DNA of 64,000 nt from Phage NC-G. The notes under the pieces are model-generated. The model worked only from the letters and a program-made list of their open reading frames with translations. It had not been told where the DNA came from and searched no databases. The first letter of the stretch is position 1. Each line of letters opens with the position of its first letter. The stretch lies in sequence record MK310184. One strand, given 5' to 3'. The position numbers and the translations under genes are program-made. Positions 3,564 through 56,511 of the stretch are shown piece by piece.

Positions 3564-4044
3564 ATGCTTTCCAAGTACCTGTTTTAAATGTTGAAATCAC
3601 GCGCTTAGCACGATTAGGAGTTTGTTTATACCAACGGGATTGAGCCAGGTTAACTGCCGCATCGTTCCAACGTTTCTGTTGGAGCATACGTAAGGAGTTA
3701 GTGAACCCTGCTACACCTGCTTCACCCATTTGGAAGACCATATTAATTAGTGCACAACGACGAACTTCATCCAGTACATCATAAACAGGTTTCAATTTAG
3801 GATTACGCAGAATAGCTCTACGAGCATTTTCAACCGACCGGTTAAAGAGTTGTTCGGCTTCAGTCATTGTAATACGACCATTACAAACTCGACCCATAAG
3901 TTTATCAAGTTCGGCACGAGCAACATCTTTAGAAGGATTCTTGGTTATCAATTGGCCGATGCCAATAGTCCAATAACCCTCGGTATCTTTATACAAATCA
4001 AGTTTAAGGCCTTCGTCAATACGAAGCATTTCAAAAATATCCAT
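3550..4044 (-). CDS. e: Endolysin (T4 lysozyme, muramidase)
   Basis: 164 aa; [30 protein letters not shown] and [30 protein letters not shown] are near-identical to T4 lysozyme including the catalytic E11/D20/T26 context. Confidence 0.95.
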
Positions 4045-4048
4045 AATA

Positions 4049-4065
4049 CCTCCTGAGTATAGGAG
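4049..4065 (-). promoter_or_regulatory. Hairpin sequestering the gene e Shine-Dalgarno
   Basis: Minus strand CTCCTatactcAGGAGG immediately 5' of the e ATG; a GATAAATA late-promoter-like motif lies just upstream (plus 4068..4075). Confidence 0.5.
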
Positions 4066-4078
4066 ATATTTATCATTC

Positions 4079-4528
4079 TTAGAACAACGAACTCAGGACC
4101 TTATACATCGACTGACCCATGACATATTCCCATTGCGGACGTTTAATCAAGGCGAAAGCATCGAACTCAGGAATACTACGACCGTCAGGGAACGTATGAT
4201 AAGCCGTACATTTGCAATCCTTGAACTGCTCGTGTTCCACAGGCACTGTATATAAGAACAGATGTAGATTCTTATTGCTTGAATATTTGAACTCACCTAG
4301 GTCTTTCAGGAATGCAGGATCGTATGCTGTGAATCCAATCTCTTCTTCAGTTTCACGCATAGCCGCTTGAATTGGTTCTTCACCCGGTTCAACATGACCT
4401 TTAGGAATGTCCCATTTATGATGCATATTCTCTGGATTACGAGAGCCTGTTACACGACCCATAACTAATTCTTTATCAACGGTCATGAACAAAATACCGG
4501 CTGATAGTTCTTTAACTTTCTTACTCAT
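4079..4528 (-). CDS. nudE: Nudix hydrolase
   Basis: Nudix box [22 protein letters not shown]; position directly next to e as T4 e.1; start set at MSKKVKEL, whose ATG overlaps the upstream stop. Confidence 0.85.
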
Positions 4529-4760: not shown

Positions 4761-5344
4761 TTACGGCATTCCTCAATAAAAGAATTCAATGTATTTTTCT
4801 TAGTGATATCGTCGTATAGCTTTTTAACTTTAGAAATACGAAAAGGCACTTCAATAACTGCAGTCCATAAAAATGATGCGATAAGACCTAAGATAGCCGC
4901 AGACATAGCTGAAGCGAATACAGAAATAGGCAGGTCGTTATCTGTTGTCAGGAAAAACCCTAGGAGTGGGAAAAATAATATACCCATCCAAACATAGAAT
5001 CTAGAACTCACCAATTTGTCATATTCATCACTCCACGTACGAAAACCATATTTTTCACTATAACAAATCAATGGGTCCGGTGTTTGTTCTTTATGTGGTT
5101 TCGCTTGCCACCCATTTACGATATAACCCATTCTGAACTCCTCAATTAAAAGTCGTTTCATTTCAGCAGTACAGCCTGACCAATCTACTGTACTGGCTGA
5201 AATTCCTTCATCACCATCATCAAGATTCAGCCAGGACTTTTTAATAATCATATTCTCACCACTTGGGATAATAATTCCGGCATTTTCTGACCTACGGATG
5301 AAGTTTGTATCAATACCCATACACCCAGGTTCATAAAGGGCCAT
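4757..5344 (-). CDS. Hypothetical membrane protein, 195 aa, ending in FIEECRK
   Basis: Two hydrophobic segments (FYVWMGILFFPLLGFFL and AAILGLIASFLWTAVI); C-terminal motif shared with two other ORFs. Confidence 0.5.
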   Translation of the reverse strand: MALYEPGCMGIDTNFIRRSENAGIIIPSGENMIIKKSWLNLDDGDEGISASTVDWSGCTAEMKRLLIEEFRMGYIVNGWQAKPHKEQTPDPLICYSEKYGFRTWSDEYDKLVSSRFYVWMGILFFPLLGFFLTTDNDLPISVFASAMSAAILGLIASFLWTAVIEVPFRISKVKKLYDDITKKNTLNSFIEECRK

Positions 5345-6030
5345 TACCAGCCCTCCATAGGGAATTCCAGATAAACTTGGGCATTAACGCGGATTTCATT
5401 GGTAATATTTTTAACACGGTCAGTGTTACGAGATACACGTCCAAACCAGCGCCAGCCGTTACTTACCGTACGAGAACCAGTATGCCAGGTTTGCCAATCA
5501 AACTGCAAGAGTGTACGGTCCGGAGCTTCCCACTGTTCTAATTCACCTGATTCAATTTTGGCCAAGACTTCTTTATGCCATTGGCGATAAATCAATTCAC
5601 CTTCTGGGATTTCACTAAAGGTGGCTTCACCGGTAGCAAAATGGGTAGGACACACATCAGCGTTAACAAGACCAAGAATGTGTTCAGACAAATAGTGAGG
5701 ATTGTCATAATCGGGTTGACCTGCAGTAATAAAATGTTGGCCCGTTGGAATAGGTGGACGTGGAACATCGTCGTGGTGATAACCTGGGATAGCCGGATAC
5801 CAGCCAGGCATCAACATATGCACACGTGAATCAAACACTACTTGATCATTATTCCAATCATCAGGCAAGTTCATAATAAAAGAGCGAGTAATAGGACCAC
5901 CATTATTATAAGCAAATTCTAAACTACAGTTGAAGAACATAGGCTCGTTCTTGATTTTATCATTAGAAATACCGCCAGCAAAACCACCTACTGCACGAGC
6001 TTTAGAATTAAAAGTTTTCGGACCGTTCAT
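5344..6030 (-). CDS. Hypothetical protein, 228 aa
   Basis: Long ORF, same strand, abuts neighbours. Confidence 0.5.
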   Translation of the reverse strand: MNGPKTFNSKARAVGGFAGGISNDKIKNEPMFFNCSLEFAYNNGGPITRSFIMNLPDDWNNDQVVFDSRVHMLMPGWYPAIPGYHHDDVPRPPIPTGQHFITAGQPDYDNPHYLSEHILGLVNADVCPTHFATGEATFSEIPEGELIYRQWHKEVLAKIESGELEQWEAPDRTLLQFDWQTWHTGSRTVSNGWRWFGRVSRNTDRVKNITNEIRVNAQVYLEFPMEGW

Positions 6031-49034: not shown

Positions 49035-50318
49035 ATGGCAAAGATTAACGAATTACTGCGCGAGTCAACAACTACTTCTAGCAACTCATTGGGTCGCCCT
49101 AATCTTGTTGCTTTGACCCGTGCTACAACCAAATTGATTTACCGTGATATTATTGCTGAACAACGTACTAGCCAGCCTATTGCTGCATTGTATGGTGTCA
49201 AATATCTTACTCCTGATAATGAATTTAGCTTCCAAACTGGTGCCGTTTATGGTGGTGAAGTTGGTTCTAAAGACCGTGAAACTATCCCGGAACTCACAGA
49301 TAAGGCCCAGGCTATTGCCAAGGGTGAATATTTCAAGTATCAGAACATAGTTTATAAGGCTCTTCAAGCAAGCCCACTCGCATCCACTAGCGCTACAGAA
49401 TTGACTGATGCCCTTCAAGAAGGTTTGGTGTCATTAACATGTCGTCTGGTTCCTGATGCGGCTCACACAGAGAAATTCGAAGCAGGTGATGTTGAAATTA
49501 GTAATGCAGTATTCCAGGTTAATAAATGGAACGCACCTGTTAAGTCTCGTAAACTTAAAACCGCTTTGACTGTAGAACTAGCCCAAGACATGGAATCCAA
49601 TGGCTTCGACGCCCCTGCGTTCTTAGAAGACCTTTTAGCCACTGTAATGGCTGATGAAATCAATAAAGACGTACTACAATCCTTGATTACCGTATCCAAA
49701 CGCTATAAAGTTACTGGTGTATCTGATAATGGTATTATTGATTTGACTTATGATAGTGCTCCGGAATCTGCACGTAAACTTTATGAAATTGTTTGTGAGA
49801 TGAATTCTGAAATCCAGAAAACTACTTCTTATTCTGGTACGTTTGTTGTGGCTTCAAGTCGTGTAGCTGCAATGCTTGCGGGTTCAGGCTGGTTAAAACA
49901 TAAACCTGAAGATAATAATTGGCTCCCAGAAACTGCCTATGGTTATTTGTTGAATGGATTACCTCTGTTCTGTGACGTTAACAGCCCGTTGGATTATGTT
50001 ATCGTCGGTGTTAAAGAGAACTATGGTGGTAATGAAGTTGTCGGTTCTATTTTCTATGCCCCGTACACAGAAGGCCTGGATTTAGACGACCAAGAACACG
50101 TTGGTGCTTATAAGGTTATTGTCGACCCGGATTCATTACAGCCTTCTATTTCTCTGATGGTTCGTTATGCACTGTCCGCTAACCCGTACACCGTAGCTAA
50201 AGACGATAAAGAAGCTCGTGTTATAGATGCAACCAATATGGATTTAATGGCTGGACAGAGTAATATGTCTTATCTGCTTGGTGTTAAACTTCCAGCAATT
50301 ATTTACGAGGCTGATTAA
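49035..50318 (+). CDS. 24: Capsid vertex protein gp24
   Basis: 427 aa; MAKINELLRESTTT... is near-identical to the T4 gp24 N-terminus. Confidence 0.95.
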   Translation: MAKINELLRESTTTSSNSLGRPNLVALTRATTKLIYRDIIAEQRTSQPIAALYGVKYLTPDNEFSFQTGAVYGGEVGSKDRETIPELTDKAQAIAKGEYFKYQNIVYKALQASPLASTSATELTDALQEGLVSLTCRLVPDAAHTEKFEAGDVEISNAVFQVNKWNAPVKSRKLKTALTVELAQDMESNGFDAPAFLEDLLATVMADEINKDVLQSLITVSKRYKVTGVSDNGIIDLTYDSAPESARKLYEIVCEMNSEIQKTTSYSGTFVVASSRVAAMLAGSGWLKHKPEDNNWLPETAYGYLLNGLPLFCDVNSPLDYVIVGVKENYGGNEVVGSIFYAPYTEGLDLDDQEHVGAYKVIVDPDSLQPSISLMVRYALSANPYTVAKDDKEARVIDATNMDLMAGQSNMSYLLGVKLPAIIYEAD

Positions 50319-51598
50319 TGTCTAAGATTATAGACCTAATTAAAGAATCCACATTGACGGCTGCCAACTCGGTTGGCCGTCCTGCTCTTCTTTCATACAC
50401 CCAAGCAACTAATAAACGAATCTTTAAAGCCCTAGTTGCTGAACAAAAAACAAGCCAACCTGTTGCCGCTCTGTACGGGGTTCGTGTACTTAATCCCGAC
50501 GACAAAATGACTTATCTTGGTGGTGCTACATTTGCAGGCCAGATTGGTATGTCGGAACGTGAAAATATTCCTGAATTTACCGATTCGTCTACAGCTTATG
50601 CAGCCGGAGATATGTTCCAGTTTGAAAGTGTAGTGTTTAAAGTTCTAGAAGCATCCCCTTTCGCCGGAACCACAGAAACCGACCTCGGTGAAGTTATTTC
50701 TGAAGCAGTGGCCGCTGGACATATTCGTATGGTATCAGATGCTGCTATTACTTCTAAATTTGAACAAGGCCATCCTGAAATTGCTGAAGCAGGCTTCCGT
50801 ATTGACAAATGGCAATCTGAAGTTAAATCACGTAAACTGAAAACTTCATTGACAGTCGAATTGGCCCAAGACCTAGAATCAAACGGGTTTAATGCTCCTA
50901 ATTTCGTTGAAAATCTGCTAGGTATTCAAATGGCGGAAGAAATTAATAAGGACGTATTACAGTCATTAATTACGGTGAGTTCTCGTTTTAAAGTCCAGGG
51001 TGTTTCTGAAAAGGGTGTATTAGACCTTACTAACCCGCGTTACGATAATGCCCAGGACCGTGCTCGTACATTATATTATTACATGTGTGAGATGAACTCT
51101 GCCGTCCAACGTCAAACTTCTTTCGCCGGGACTTATGCAGTAGCTAGTTCTCGTTGTGCTGCTATTCTCGCCGCTTCCGGTTGGGTTGAGAAAAAGGAAG
51201 ACCAAGACGAACTGGCTTATGGTGTATTAAAGAATGGTCTGCCTCTTTATGCCGATATGAATAGTCCATGTGATTATGTTATTGTTGGTGTAAATGCTCA
51301 GATGGGTGAAGGACAGACGGTCGCATCTTTATATTATGCGCCTTATACGGAAGGTTTGGATGTGGTTGATGAAGAAGGTGATACTTCAGTAGGTGAATTT
51401 AAGGTTATTGTTGACCCGGAAAGCTTACAACCTACAGTAGCATTGCTTGCTCGTTATGCATTGACTGCAAACCCTTATACCGTCGCTAAGGACGATAAAG
51501 AAGCCCGCATTATTGATGGCTCTGATATGGACAAAATGGCTAACCAAAGCCAGTTGAGTTCTTATCTTGGTGTTAAACTTCCACCACTAGAAAAATAA
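50318..51598 (+). CDS. Second, diverged gp24-family vertex protein paralogue
   Basis: 426 aa, colinear with gp24 at roughly half identity by eye (shared KSRKLKT, TVELAQD, INKDVLQSLITVS, PYTVAKDDKEAR); TAATG overlap with gene 24. Confidence 0.85.
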   Translation: MSKIIDLIKESTLTAANSVGRPALLSYTQATNKRIFKALVAEQKTSQPVAALYGVRVLNPDDKMTYLGGATFAGQIGMSERENIPEFTDSSTAYAAGDMFQFESVVFKVLEASPFAGTTETDLGEVISEAVAAGHIRMVSDAAITSKFEQGHPEIAEAGFRIDKWQSEVKSRKLKTSLTVELAQDLESNGFNAPNFVENLLGIQMAEEINKDVLQSLITVSSRFKVQGVSEKGVLDLTNPRYDNAQDRARTLYYYMCEMNSAVQRQTSFAGTYAVASSRCAAILAASGWVEKKEDQDELAYGVLKNGLPLYADMNSPCDYVIVGVNAQMGEGQTVASLYYAPYTEGLDVVDEEGDTSVGEFKVIVDPESLQPTVALLARYALTANPYTVAKDDKEARIIDGSDMDKMANQSQLSSYLGVKLPPLEK

Positions 51599-51600
51599 AA

Positions 51601-51622
51601 GGGACCGTAAGGTCCCTTTATT
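51601..51622. terminator. Bidirectional terminator hairpin
   Basis: GGGACCgtaaGGTCCC between the convergent gp24 paralogue and rnlB. Confidence 0.5.
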
Positions 51623-51624
51623 GT

Positions 51625-52632
51625 TTATTTGGATACTAATTCAATCCATACGGCTCTTAAGGTATCTTTTACACACTCAACGAGCTGCTTTTTAACTTCA
51701 ACAGGGTTTTCTGCATCGGTTAATTCTAATTCTTCACGGGCTGCCTCTTCCAAAATATCTTGGACCGTTAGTCCCATTACCTTTCCGAAATCTTTAGGTG
51801 ATACTTCACCAATCTTACTGATAACGTTGTTAATACGGTTAACAGTCACATAATCAGTGAATTGCCACATCAAGTCCATATCGTCTTGGGACAATACCAC
51901 TGGAACCTTAATAGGCTTGTCAGACTTTTTCTTCTCGCTGAATTTAGAGTTCTTACATTTAATAGCTACACGATTTCCGTTTGGAAGCCAGAGTGGGTAG
52001 CAAGGTTTTAATACATACCCTTCAGCCGTAAATACTTCGCCTTTTGCTTCAGACTTCCATACACGGGCATTAGCTTCAATTAACCCGACATTATCTACCA
52101 TAAAATTATAATCTTGGACAACAGAATCTAAATCATTTGGCAATTTAATAAGGTCTTCAAATTTACCACGGCCTAAAAGTGGGGCAACTTTAAATCGAAA
52201 TGTCTTACAGAATGATTCCAACATATAATCATCGACATAAGTCACATCGCCACTTTCTGTGGTAACAATAATGTCAAATACATAAAAATCTTTATCACCA
52301 TAATCAACATTCTTCTGAATGCCAGGCCCGGCTAGTTCACCAAAAACTTGATAAGATACAGCAGCTGAAGTTTCCATGATATCTTGTACTGCTTTAATGG
52401 AATCAGCATAATTCTTTAAAACAATTTCATAACCAAAGAAATCTTCGGCTGGGAGAATTGGGCCAGTTCGCTTGGCACATGTGACTGCGCCACGTTCTAT
52501 GATTAAACTAAAGTTGGTTCCATGAATCTTCTCACGTGCTACCCATTCACCACCAGTCAAACCATGGATACGGAGTTTTTCGATAAACTTACTGTTGTAG
52601 TGGTTTTCGAGACTGCTATATTTCTTAAACAT
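51625..52632 (-). CDS. rnlB: RNA ligase 2
   Basis: [20 protein letters not shown]...[19 protein letters not shown] is near-identical to T4 Rnl2, including the adenylylation lysine motif KIHG. Confidence 0.95.
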
Positions 52633-52633
52633 A

Positions 52634-53002
52634 TTATTTGCTTCCATAATCAATTTTAACTAATTTACCTTTAAGGTAACCATAATTTGAAGGTTTACAA
52701 TCAGACATATACATGCTTTCTACTAAGGTTTGGTGCCTTGCATGATGTATTTCTGTTTTCCATAATCCGATATTCGTAACTTCTTGGGCCCTAGGCATAA
52801 CTATAACAAACCCTAACCAAGATTTCCATATAACAGGACACAAATACGGGTCCTTCAATGATGAGAATTCGTGTTCCGTTATATTGCAATAGAGCCCGGT
52901 TAAAAACAGTTTCCAACTATAGAAGCTTGGTATCTTAATGGCGTATCGTTTCGTCAGGAAGACCTGCCGGGTTGCACCATTTCTTTTTCTGATAAATGGC
53001 AT
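52634..53002 (-). CDS. Mini protein-kinase-like protein, 122 aa
   Basis: AIK (beta3-lysine-like), DCKPSN (catalytic-loop-like) and IDYG (DFG-like) motifs in kinase order. Confidence 0.4.
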
Positions 53003-53116
53003 AAATCACCATAATAAATATAATTAAATAGAAGAGCTAGTAATCTTCTGTCACCAAGCCAAATGGTTTAACGGAAGGACCTAGACCCATTATAACACAC
53101 CTAAATTTAAAGCATA

Positions 53117-53429: not shown

Positions 53430-54278
53430 TTAGTAAACGTAATCGTATATAATACCAGCTTCTAAAGCGGTGCGATGAATAATTCGACCATTACGAGATT
53501 CCTGTACATCAACCTCTGGGTAGTCGGTAATCATTTTTTGAAGTGTGTATCGGTGCAAATAATACGGGCTATCCGGGTCATCTGTTTTCCAGTCTTGTCC
53601 GGCAAGAGCCATTTTCTGGATTTCATCCATAACCCACCAACCACACCAGATATAAGCTGAATTACGAACTGGCAGCGGGTGGACGTAAGGTAGTTCGCCT
53701 TCCGGTTCAGGAGCAACTTTAGGCGTAATTGTTACATTACCAGATTTTTTGACAGTCACAGGATTATAGTCGGTAGCCGAAACCACAACAGAAACTTCAA
53801 TAACCTGTGAACCTTCGGCACTAGTATCAACCACTAAAGTATCTGTGGTGCCAACTACAGGAGAACCGTCTTTCTTCCAAGAATAGGCAAAAGTAGCTCC
53901 ACTCGGTGCGCCGGCTACAGTAGCTTTAAAAGAAGCCGGAGTTCCTTCAGGAACATTAATTGATTCTGGGGTTAATGTCACAGAAACACCAGACATAGTT
54001 TTATTCTGGATAGTTAAAGTTGTCTCGGCCTCAGCAGTTTCCGGTTCGCCTTCCGCTGGTGTAGTTGTTGCAACAACTTTAATAGTCTTGCTGCCTGCTG
54101 GACCAACAGCAACATAATCCATTGCAGCAGTCACAGAAGATTGAGGAACGCCATCAACGGTCCAGACAAATGATTCGGTACCTTCAGCTGCAGCACCGGA
54201 ACCGGTCGCAGTGAAATTGGTTGTTGCTCCAATAACGGCCGTAGCCGCCAAAGGAGCAATAGATACGGTATAAGCCAT
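53430..54278 (-). CDS. hoc: Head outer capsid protein Hoc (Ig-like domains), 282 aa
   Basis: Thr/Val/Ser-rich Ig-like repeats followed by a C-terminal capsid-binding region; position next to inh. Confidence 0.75.
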   Translation of the reverse strand: MAYTVSIAPLAATAVIGATTNFTATGSGAAAEGTESFVWTVDGVPQSSVTAAMDYVAVGPAGSKTIKVVATTTPAEGEPETAEAETTLTIQNKTMSGVSVTLTPESINVPEGTPASFKATVAGAPSGATFAYSWKKDGSPVVGTTDTLVVDTSAEGSQVIEVSVVVSATDYNPVTVKKSGNVTITPKVAPEPEGELPYVHPLPVRNSAYIWCGWWVMDEIQKMALAGQDWKTDDPDSPYYLHRYTLQKMITDYPEVDVQESRNGRIIHRTALEAGIIYDYVY

Positions 54279-54287
54279 AATAAACCC

Positions 54288-54959
54288 TTATTTTAAAGTG
54301 ACAAAAGATGAGTTACGAGTTTCTCGTATTAGAACAGACCCATTACGATTGATGTAATAAATCAAGCTGAATAGTGTTTGGTGTGCAGTAGGATGTGGGA
54401 AAGCAGTTGGACGTTCTTTCCAATCCAGAGTCTCAGAAATCCACTGATAAATCCACCATGGAACAGTACAGAATCCAGGGTTCTTACCGATAAGCAAAAG
54501 ATTAGGACTGAAGTTTTCGGGTAAAGAGAACACAGGTTTTTCCGATTCAATAACCTTGGCTACAGCCTCTTTGAATTTCTCTTCGACAAATGGGGCATCC
54601 TCTTCAATAATCTCTACCTTAGGAAGTTCGGCTACCTCTATTACTTCAACAACCGCCTCAGGAGCATCGAACAACAGGGTTGCTTCTTCTTTAGCTGGTT
54701 CTGCACCTTCGATAAAATCGTTATCACCGGTGAGTTCGTCAGCAGCATCAATCAAATCAGAAATAGACAAACCTTCGGTTTCTGGGAGTGGTTCGTCAGC
54801 CAAGGCTTTAAGGCCTTCAGAGATATCGATAATCAAATTATCAAACGAACGGGTTTTCTTAAGTTTTAAACCGAACTGTTCGCCGTATTCGATTAACTTA
54901 GCTTTAGCTTCTTTTTTATCTTCGAGTGCACGAAGCTCTTCAATATATTGAGTATCCAT
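54288..54959 (-). CDS. inh: Inhibitor of prohead protease
   Basis: 223 aa at the T4 inh position. Confidence 0.7.
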   Translation of the reverse strand: MDTQYIEELRALEDKKEAKAKLIEYGEQFGLKLKKTRSFDNLIIDISEGLKALADEPLPETEGLSISDLIDAADELTGDNDFIEGAEPAKEEATLLFDAPEAVVEVIEVAELPKVEIIEEDAPFVEEKFKEAVAKVIESEKPVFSLPENFSPNLLLIGKNPGFCTVPWWIYQWISETLDWKERPTAFPHPTAHQTLFSLIYYINRNGSVLIRETRNSSFVTLK

Positions 54960-55014
54960 AATTAGTCTCTTGTTGGTGTATAAATATAGTTATATTTATA
55001 ACTGAGAATTAGAC

Positions 55015-56511
55015 ATGCAAATTCAAGTACATTTTGATAATTTTAGTCATGTTCGTGTTGAGTGTGATGAATCCACCTTCTACGAACTCAGAGACTATTT
55101 CAGCTTTGAAGCTGATGGATATAAATTTAACCCTAAATACCGTTACGGGCAATGGGATGGGAGAATTCGTCTTCTAGATTATAACCGTAAACTTCCGTAT
55201 GGTCTAGTCCCACAAATTAAAAAATTCGCTGACCAGTTTGAATACTCTCTTTGGATAGACCCACGTATTCTTGAACAGGAAGATATTTCTCGCGAAGATT
55301 TTGACTCATGGGTAGCTTCACAAGAGATTTATTCAGGTTCTACCAAGATTGAGCCACATTGGTATCAGAATGAAGCCGTATACAACGGTCTGACAAAACG
55401 TCGTGCAATTCTGAATTTACCTACATCCGCAGGTAAATCATTGATTCAGGCGCTCCTGAGTCGATATTACGTTGAGAACTATGAAGGTAAAATTCTTATC
55501 TTAGTTCCTACTACTGCACTTGTCGACCAGATGATTAATGACTTCGTTGATTATCGTTTGTTCCCTAAAGCTGCTATGCTTGGTATTCGTTCAGGTACTG
55601 CTCGTGATTCCGATGCAATGATTTATGTTTCAACTTATCAAACGGCTATTAAACAACCTAAAGAATGGTTTGCTCAGTTTGGTATGTTTATGAACGACGA
55701 ATGCCATTTGGCGACAGGTAAATCAATTTCTACCATCATCGAAGGCCTAACCAATTGTATGTTTAAATTCGGTTTGTCTGGTTCTTTAAAAGACGGTAAA
55801 GCTAATTTAATGCAATATATGGGTTTGTTTGGTGATGTGTTTAAGCCGGTATCCACTTCACAGTTAATGGAAGAAGGACAGGTTACAGACCTTAAAATCA
55901 ACAGTATTTTCCTTCGGTACCCAGACGAATTCACTGTTAAGATGAAAGGTAAAGATTACCAATCAGAAATAAAGGTCATTACTAAGGCTACTCGTCGTAA
56001 TAAATGGGTTGCTAATTTAGCTGTTAAACTCGCTAAGAAAGAAGAGAACGTATTCTTGATGTTTAAAAACATCGAACACGGTAAAACTCTTTTTGAAATG
56101 GTTAAAGAGCAACATAAAGAAGTTTATTACGTATCAGGTGAAGTTAATACCGAAACGCGTAATGCTCTGAAAGTAATGGCGGAAAATGGTAAGGGTATTA
56201 TTGTTGTGGCAAGTTATGGTGTGTTCTCTACTGGTATTTCCGTTAAGAACCTTCATCATGTTGTATTTGCTCATCCGGTAAAATCTAAAATCATTGTACT
56301 CCAGACAATTGGTCGTGTACTCCGTAAACATGCTTCTAAATCAACAGCACAAGTTTGGGACATTATAGACGACATGGGCGTTAAGCCTAAATCAGCAAAT
56401 GCTAAAAAGAAATATGTTCATTTGAATTATGCATTAAAACATGCCTTAGAACGTATTCAACGTTATGCTGACGAGAAATTTAATTACGTAATGAAACAGG
56501 TGGATTTATGA
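55015..56511 (+). CDS. uvsW: UvsW helicase (SF2)
   Basis: 498 aa; Walker A TSAGKS, DEAD-like DECH; position before uvsY. Confidence 0.9.
   Translation: MQIQVHFDNFSHVRVECDESTFYELRDYFSFEADGYKFNPKYRYGQWDGRIRLLDYNRKLPYGLVPQIKKFADQFEYSLWIDPRILEQEDISREDFDSWVASQEIYSGSTKIEPHWYQNEAVYNGLTKRRAILNLPTSAGKSLIQALLSRYYVENYEGKILILVPTTALVDQMINDFVDYRLFPKAAMLGIRSGTARDSDAMIYVSTYQTAIKQPKEWFAQFGMFMNDECHLATGKSISTIIEGLTNCMFKFGLSGSLKDGKANLMQYMGLFGDVFKPVSTSQLMEEGQVTDLKINSIFLRYPDEFTVKMKGKDYQSEIKVITKATRRNKWVANLAVKLAKKEENVFLMFKNIEHGKTLFEMVKEQHKEVYYVSGEVNTETRNALKVMAENGKGIIVVASYGVFSTGISVKNLHHVVFAHPVKSKIIVLQTIGRVLRKHASKSTAQVWDIIDDMGVKPKSANAKKKYVHLNYALKHALERIQRYADEKFNYVMKQVDL

Follow-up and report, generated by a model that had tools for sequence, protein, structure and literature searches.

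Can a protein of about 120 residues that stops just past its DFG-like motif be a working kinase? The question is raised by an ORF of the T4-like Phage NC-G (genome size 170 kb), analysed here in a window of 64,000 nucleotides from sequence record MK310184, to which all positions below refer unless another record is named. The original prediction, made from the letters of this window, had pointed to a small protein-kinase-like product carrying, in the correct order, an AIK lysine motif, a DCKPSN catalytic-loop-like motif and an IDYG motif. This was borne out by the ORF listing of the window, in which an ATG-start ORF of the minus strand displays AIK at residues 21-23, DCKPSN at residues 101-106 and IDYG at residues 117-120, the chain stopping two residues past the glycine of the last motif (G120). 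Its product, hereafter designated as the mini-kinase, is an exact match to QBP35521.1, a "hypothetical protein" of Phage NC-G.

The gene order around this ORF is the same as in T4 and comprises two gp24 copies, rnlB, the mini-kinase ORF, a 24.3 homologue, hoc, inh and uvsW (Table 1). The adjoining downstream gene encodes RNA ligase 2, as had been proposed, and the slot is occupied in T4 by the unrelated gene 24.2 (92 aa). BLASTP detected no similarity between the two products, and the mini-kinase was rejected on this ground as a counterpart of 24.2. The TAA of the mini-kinase (52634-52636) and the ATG of rnlB (52630-52632) are separated by one nucleotide (junction GGAAGCAAATAATATG), a proximity that points to co-transcription and, probably, to translational coupling.

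Table 1. Features of the mini-kinase locus of Phage NC-G (positions in the 64,000-nucleotide window).
Feature	Position	Strand	Remarks
GC-rich hairpin, 9 bp	51598..51619		between the convergent gp24 and rnlB; terminator-like on both strands
rnlB (RNA ligase 2)	51625..52632	-	335 aa; 82% identity to T4 Rnl2
370-bp cassette (ORF + 1 nt)	52633..53002		in NC-G, JS10 and IME341; not in UP19, EcWhh-1 and others
Mini-kinase ORF	52634..53002	-	122 aa + stop codon; QBP35521.1; PHROG 4301
D118-Y-G120	52643..52651	-	DFG-equivalent Mg-binding motif (putative); two residues before the C-terminus
D101-C-K-P-S-N106	52685..52702	-	putative catalytic loop (D-x-K-x-x-N), from conservation and hhalign onto PKA RDLKPEN
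N40...E43	52874..52885	-	on helix alphaC (30-47)
A21-I-K23	52934..52942	-	beta3 "VAIK" lysine, strand 20-25
G9-A-T-R-Q-V14	52961..52978	-	modified glycine-rich loop, consensus G-x-T-R-x-V, between beta1 and beta2
GGTGA, Shine-Dalgarno-like	53006..53010	-	3 nt 5' of the mini-kinase ATG; read from sequence
Putative T4-type middle promoter	53089..53115	-	read by eye

Several other features were observed in this neighbourhood. The head vertex protein gp24 is encoded by tandem paralogues on the plus strand (49035-50318 and 50318-51598; 427 and 426 aa), which are annotated as 24a and 24b in JS10, and the second of these has 57% identity with T4 gp24. Hoc (53430-54278, minus strand) has a length of 282 aa, while its counterparts in T4 and in UP19, a close relative, reach 376 and 375 aa, respectively; the NC-G protein was aligned by BLASTP to T4 residues 98-375 and apparently has one Ig-like repeat fewer. 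The hoc region of JS10 is arranged otherwise, with a tail-fibre-like gene and hoc on the opposite strand. At 54959-55015, inh is directly followed by uvsW, the homing endonuclease gene segE that lies between them in T4 being missing.

In NC-G, the mini-kinase is an accessory cassette. While 552 T4-like records matched the rnlB-to-24.3 region in megablast searches, a mini-kinase ORF was found at this locus only in JS10 and IME341. The closest relatives by their flanks, UP19 and EcWhh-1 (96% identical), gave a two-piece match without the ORF, and alignment with these relatives placed both borders of the cassette between CAT and A. In UP19, a conserved leader (...AATTATATTTATTATGGTGATTT) joins the rnlB ATG directly; in the NC-G window, the same leader joins the mini-kinase ATG and rnlB comes after the mini-kinase stop. 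This leader, with its GGTGA, is kept in UP19 and JS10 and serves rnlB in relatives devoid of the mini-kinase ORF. The NC-G gene and its JS10 orthologue differ by 18 nucleotides, 15 synonymous and 3 non-synonymous (dN/dS 0.044), indicating that the gene is real and under purifying selection.

The putative middle promoter is placed directly past the 24.3 stop and upstream of the mini-kinase leader. It is composed of a MotA-box-like ATGCTTTA (53115-53108), a 13-nt spacer and a TATAAT (53094-53089) with a TG one base upstream, and resembles the consensus of T4 MotA-dependent middle promoters; a sigma-70 scan did not list it on the minus strand. UP19 and JS10 have kept this region as well, and in those two phages rnlB would be the gene expressed from it. 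Being terminator-like on both strands, the GC-rich hairpin probably marks where the mini-kinase/rnlB transcript stops. A middle-type promoter would probably drive the two genes together, and the mini-kinase may be expressed before the late genes.

The mini-kinase falls within a PHROGs family annotated as of unknown function (phrog_4301, E 3.7e-39, residues 3-121), and homologues are broadly distributed. Searches by tblastn retrieved 103 phage records from many lineages, including T4-like phages, Asteriusvirus jumbo phages (121Q, G17), Vequintavirinae, N4-like and FelixO1-like phages, as well as jumbo phages of Erwinia, Aeromonas, Ralstonia, Klebsiella and Pseudomonas. A profile search of a 90%-identity collection yielded 765 family proteins, and an exhaustive HMMER search identified at least 1,585 clusters at 50% identity (E<=1e-3), 1,004 of them with E<=1e-10. 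Judged from plasmid records and E. coli genomes, the family looks phage-restricted: blastn revealed no homologue in 5,426 complete E. coli genomes, and a single one of 72,556 records in a plasmid database contained one. That sole match (NZ_CP148392.1, 50078-50425; H81; 48% identity) lies in a 92.8-kb, non-mobilizable E. coli "plasmid", possibly a phage-plasmid or the genome of a phage.

Short length is a family trait. Members measure 110-139 aa in 226 of the 263 proteins retrieved, and nearly all 110-150 aa; 231 of 264 aligned chains end 0-3 residues past D-Y-G. In the few longer members (up to 350 aa), heads and tails show neither conservation nor any mutual relationship, and scans of these proteins for informative fusions revealed no Pfam domain. 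Among them are a member of the Kosakonia phage Kc263 (L006, 3944-4747) with a 127-aa tail, P0267 (350 aa) with a 190-aa tail and P0237 (238 aa) with a hydrophobic, possibly membrane-spanning N-terminal head, each without a Pfam match. With this common end point and the purifying selection noted above, the proposal that the ORF might be a kinase fragment left by a decayed gene was rejected.

Conservation was counted in a family alignment of 264 sequences. Three residues are invariant (K23, N40 and D118), closely followed by G9, R12, P25 and G108 (263 each), E43 and G36 (262 each), Y119 (260) and V14 (258), then by T11 (235) and G120 (214). Position 101 is always acidic (D in 173, E in 91) and position 106 is occupied by N (177), S (86) or T (1); K103, found in 199 sequences, is not invariant. 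Positions 101, 106 and 116 define two co-varying classes, D101/N106/K116 (n=171) and E101/S106/A116 (n=84). The pairing of a longer acid with a shorter polar residue (E101/S106) looks compensatory, as if both shared one active site, but the two classes may simply represent two clades. Beyond the kinase pattern, the family has invariants of its own at R12, N40, W30, F33 and C55-P56.

These residues can be matched to the catalytic apparatus of protein kinases. From its spacing, the G9-V14 loop would be the equivalent of the kinase G-loop, and E43 would be expected to form a salt bridge with K23. The spacings of the mini-kinase (K23-E43, 20; E43-Met69, 26; D101-N106, 5; N106 to DYG, 12) match those of PKA, which are 19 (Lys-Glu), 29 (Glu-gatekeeper), 5 (Asp-Asn) and 13 (Asn-DFG), Met69 being presumably the counterpart of the PKA gatekeeper M120. 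Pseudokinases usually lack at least one of the catalytic-base or Mg-ligand residues. A pseudokinase, one of the options originally considered, is not favoured here, with every ATP, Mg and catalytic position conserved across the 264 sequences.

The predicted fold agrees with this assignment. AlphaFold2, run with a 121-sequence alignment, returned a model of the mini-kinase with a pLDDT of 92.5 and a pTM of 0.83, in which the predicted elements follow one another in kinase order: beta1 (5-8), beta2 (12-16), beta3 (20-25), alphaC (30-47) and beta4/beta5 (to 70), then helices 78-89 and 95-99, the catalytic loop, beta7 (107-110), beta8 (113-116), DYG and the C-terminus. A member of the E/S class, 42% identical, was modelled with the same topology and an even shorter helical linker (pLDDT 94.1). 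Four structural and sequence features of the protein-kinase-like (PKL) superfamily were found, namely an N-lobe made of a five-stranded antiparallel sheet and helix alphaC, the beta3 Lys with the alphaC Glu, a catalytic-loop D-x-x-x-x-N and a DFG-type Asp. Foldseek matched the model to TTK/Mps1 kinases in the PDB (E 3e-4) and to small phage proteins and annotated viral kinases in BFVD; RIO, Bud32 and Ark1 were also among the structural matches. Structure prediction, which had been suggested as a check, thus clearly gave a kinase-like fold, and with high confidence we regard both this fold and the family membership as settled.

Sequence profiles, the other check, gave a divided answer. Scans of the ORF against Pfam, NCBIfam and PADLOC identified no kinase family, nor did a Pfam scan of 121 family members, and PDB searches using phmmer or hmmsearch with the family profile returned nothing; the search is therefore negative for the mini-kinase itself, whereas structure prediction is positive. 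Sub-threshold matches to Pfam DUF3440 were detected in 14 of the 121 members (best E 4.5e-4), covering beta3-alphaC and profile positions 57-104 of 182; members that were scanned one by one (P0016, P0019, P0040 and L004:3983-4354) scored 17-18 bits, the cutoff being 25. On two repeat scans these matches were still sub-threshold and uninformative.

A link to kinases emerged from more sensitive comparisons and from a sister clade. Alignment by hhalign to four canonical kinases reached an E-value of only 0.1 but placed sDcKPsN...KIDYG on RDLKPEN...VTDFG of PKA in the correct register. The sister clade is represented by ORF186 of the Ralstonia phage RP12 and its relatives (tblastn E 2e-8 to the window ORF), proteins of about 142-165 aa that end some 15 residues past DYG and share with the window ORF the K, P, G, N, E, D, N and DYG positions. 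Searched against the PDB, the RP12-clade profile matched 731 sequences at E<=10, and protein kinases make up nearly all of the best 60; the best matches were PAK1 (E 0.0076) and PKA (0.015-0.03), PAK1 and PKA together spanning 0.008-0.07, and these were aligned in register from alphaE to DFG. The RP12 protein also matched PD-T4-6 kinase models (E 1e-4). This signal is probably the reason why homologues in a few jumbo-phage records are labelled "serine/threonine kinase" or "STE family kinase domain". Full-text literature searches found no study of the PHROG 4301 family. We would describe it as a drastically shortened form of the protein-kinase-like fold, picked up by automated annotation in a few genomes and otherwise uncharacterised.

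How far this shortening goes is seen by comparison with known kinases. Hanks-type enzymes (PknB 1mru, PAK1, PKA) possess an activation segment, an APE motif and helices alphaF-alphaI, all of which are missing from the mini-kinase, while alphaD/alphaE are shrunk to one or two short helices. Only G9 is kept from the G-x-G-x-x-G loop, which reads G-x-T-R-x-V with an Arg at the place of the third glycine; the His and Arg of HRD are missing; and neither the ORF nor the 121 members reached the Pfam Pkinase threshold. Bud32, RIO1/2, the archaeal RNA kinase Ark1/ArkI and Shigella OspG are the nearest minimal systems, the atypical kinases. The mini-kinase lacks the post-DFG helices retained by RIO, Bud32 and Ark1 and is not recognised by their family HMMs. 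The earlier suggestion of a KdoK/RIO-like minimal fold stands for the structural matches to RIO, Bud32 and Ark1 but not for the weak sequence signal, which leads to the Hanks-type PAK1 and PKA. APH(2''), with about 300 residues, has a helical substrate-binding C-lobe; its H-x-D-x-x-x-x-N motif is not found in the mini-kinase family, where positions 99-100 are variable and no His occurs, and the ORF and 121 members gave no Pfam APH match. ATP-grasp enzymes and SAICAR synthetase share an ATP-binding core with protein kinases, yet the conserved residues of the mini-kinase follow the protein-kinase pattern (K, E, DxKxxN, DFG) and not that of ATP-grasp.

Among phage proteins, the T7 Gp0.7 kinase (T7K) and JSS1_004, likewise phage-encoded and located outside the core replication and structural modules, would offer the best functional analogy. 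Both promiscuously phosphorylate host and defence proteins (PMC13645617, PMC12345140), and bacterial defences are broadly disarmed by the T7 kinase (PMC13645617). T7K has a kinase domain of about 242 residues with a DPV motif in place of DFG, and a C-terminal shut-off domain is frequent in its family (PMC13645617); the mini-kinase differs in carrying DYG instead of DPV. The Asteriusvirus 121Q (L004) has two kinase-like genes, unrelated in sequence and about 3 kb apart, the T7 Gp0.7-like gene 205 (165-839, DP motif; PMC13645617) and the mini-kinase gene 215 (3983-4354); BLASTP detected no similarity between the mini-kinase and the product of gene 205.

Across phages, mini-kinase genes usually have small unannotated ORFs as neighbours and lie close to genes for replication or nucleotide metabolism, and one adjoins a tRNA cluster. 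Clustering of all ORFs from 32 loci revealed no neighbour family common beyond near-identical phages, and the ORFs that directly follow the mini-kinase gene in PhiZZ30, 121Q and A7_1 show no relationship either among themselves or with the Kc263 tail. A split kinase, with its C-lobe encoded by an adjacent small ORF, was rejected on these grounds. The coupling with rnlB in NC-G is suggestive and not general across the family. In a phage from a soil/root metagenome (L011), the mini-kinase (5001-5423) lies three genes upstream of a homologue of the anti-Gabija protein Gad2 (PF26128; 6129-6728) among small accessory ORFs, and the same was observed in L012.

The reading that we prefer, held with modest confidence, is that of a stand-alone minimal protein-kinase-like domain, probably an active Mg-ATP phosphotransferase that is expressed ahead of the late genes and acts on host targets. 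It would consist of a complete kinase N-lobe (beta1-beta3, alphaC, beta4-beta5) followed by a linker reduced to one or two small helices, then by the catalytic loop, beta7-beta8 and the DFG-type Mg-binding motif, without the activation segment and alphaF-alphaI. Mg-ATP would lie in the cleft, held by the K23-E43 pair, the G9-x-T-R12-x-V14 loop, N106 and D118, with K23 expected to contact the alpha and beta phosphates, and D101 would serve as catalytic base for the hydroxyl of the substrate. The conserved ATP, Mg and catalytic residues, the apparently compensatory classes and the purifying selection together argue for a predicted active phosphotransferase over a pseudokinase or a remnant.

In canonical kinases, helix alphaF and the activation segment are essential organisers of catalysis and substrate binding. 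Having neither an activation segment nor C-lobe helices, the mini-kinase must recognise its substrates differently. These may dock on the face usually covered by the activation segment, and because that face is open, the protein is probably promiscuous, or else reliant on R12, N40, W30, F33 and C55-P56, on self-association or on a host partner. Alternatively, the absence of alphaF and of the activation segment could mean that the protein binds nucleotides only, or functions only in a complex. Both the D-x-K-x-x-N loop and the resemblance of the sequence signal to PAK/PKA speak for proteins as substrates. That these are host proteins is a guess by analogy with T7 Gp0.7-type kinases, under which they would be modified during takeover or counter-defence, to date the most plausible role. 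Taken further, this reading makes the family one of self-sufficient active kinases of about 120 residues, the smallest protein-kinase-like enzymes known and, next to the T7 Gp0.7 type, a second widespread class of phage kinases used by virulent phages to rewire or disarm their hosts; this broader view is tentative, and we hold it at somewhat less than an even chance.

Two other functions retain some plausibility, both being considered unlikely. The first is a non-catalytic binder of ATP or of an adenine-containing immune signal, acting as a sponge, a decoy, or an inhibitor that docks on a host kinase-fold or defence protein. Small size, stand-alone occurrence, accessory status and variability are traits typical of known phage sponge proteins, and the mini-kinase combines them: it has no partner gene, varies between close relatives and is surrounded by small accessory ORFs, with the Gad2 homologue three genes away in one case. 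Binding would also fit the loss of every kinase substrate-binding element, but a binding-only function hardly explains why position 101 is always acidic, why the Mg ligands N/S106 and D118 are kept and why compensatory D/N and E/S classes seem to exist. The second, to which we give a similarly low probability, is a kinase of RNA or small molecules. It might phosphorylate RNA, either at a 2'-OH in the manner of Ark1 or at a 5'-OH to supply RNA ligase 2, or it might resemble APH and modify a metabolite or signalling nucleotide. Chance motifs, or a functionless decayed remnant of a longer kinase gene, might be argued from the lack of Pfam or PDB sequence matches for the ORF itself and from its absence in the closest relatives, but 1,585 clusters of conserved length, the low dN/dS, motif residues that are invariant (K23, D118) or nearly so (E43, 99%; D or E at 101) and two high-confidence fold predictions leave this idea a vanishingly small probability, and on family-wide conservation it is already refuted.

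Returning to the preferred phosphotransferase, the question is directly testable, the protein being small, its prediction of high confidence, and phages with (NC-G, JS10) and without (UP19) the gene naturally available. In kinase structural biology, alphaF and the activation segment are regarded as the scaffold of the enzyme, and here is a family of at least 1,585 clusters that ends at DFG. If active, a mini-kinase of about 122 residues would be the smallest kinase-like enzyme known and its family would show how small the catalytic core of the kinase fold can truly be; phosphotransfer would then require nothing past the DFG motif. With an active mini-kinase, the means by which phages take over their hosts and counter defences would include a second kinase family.
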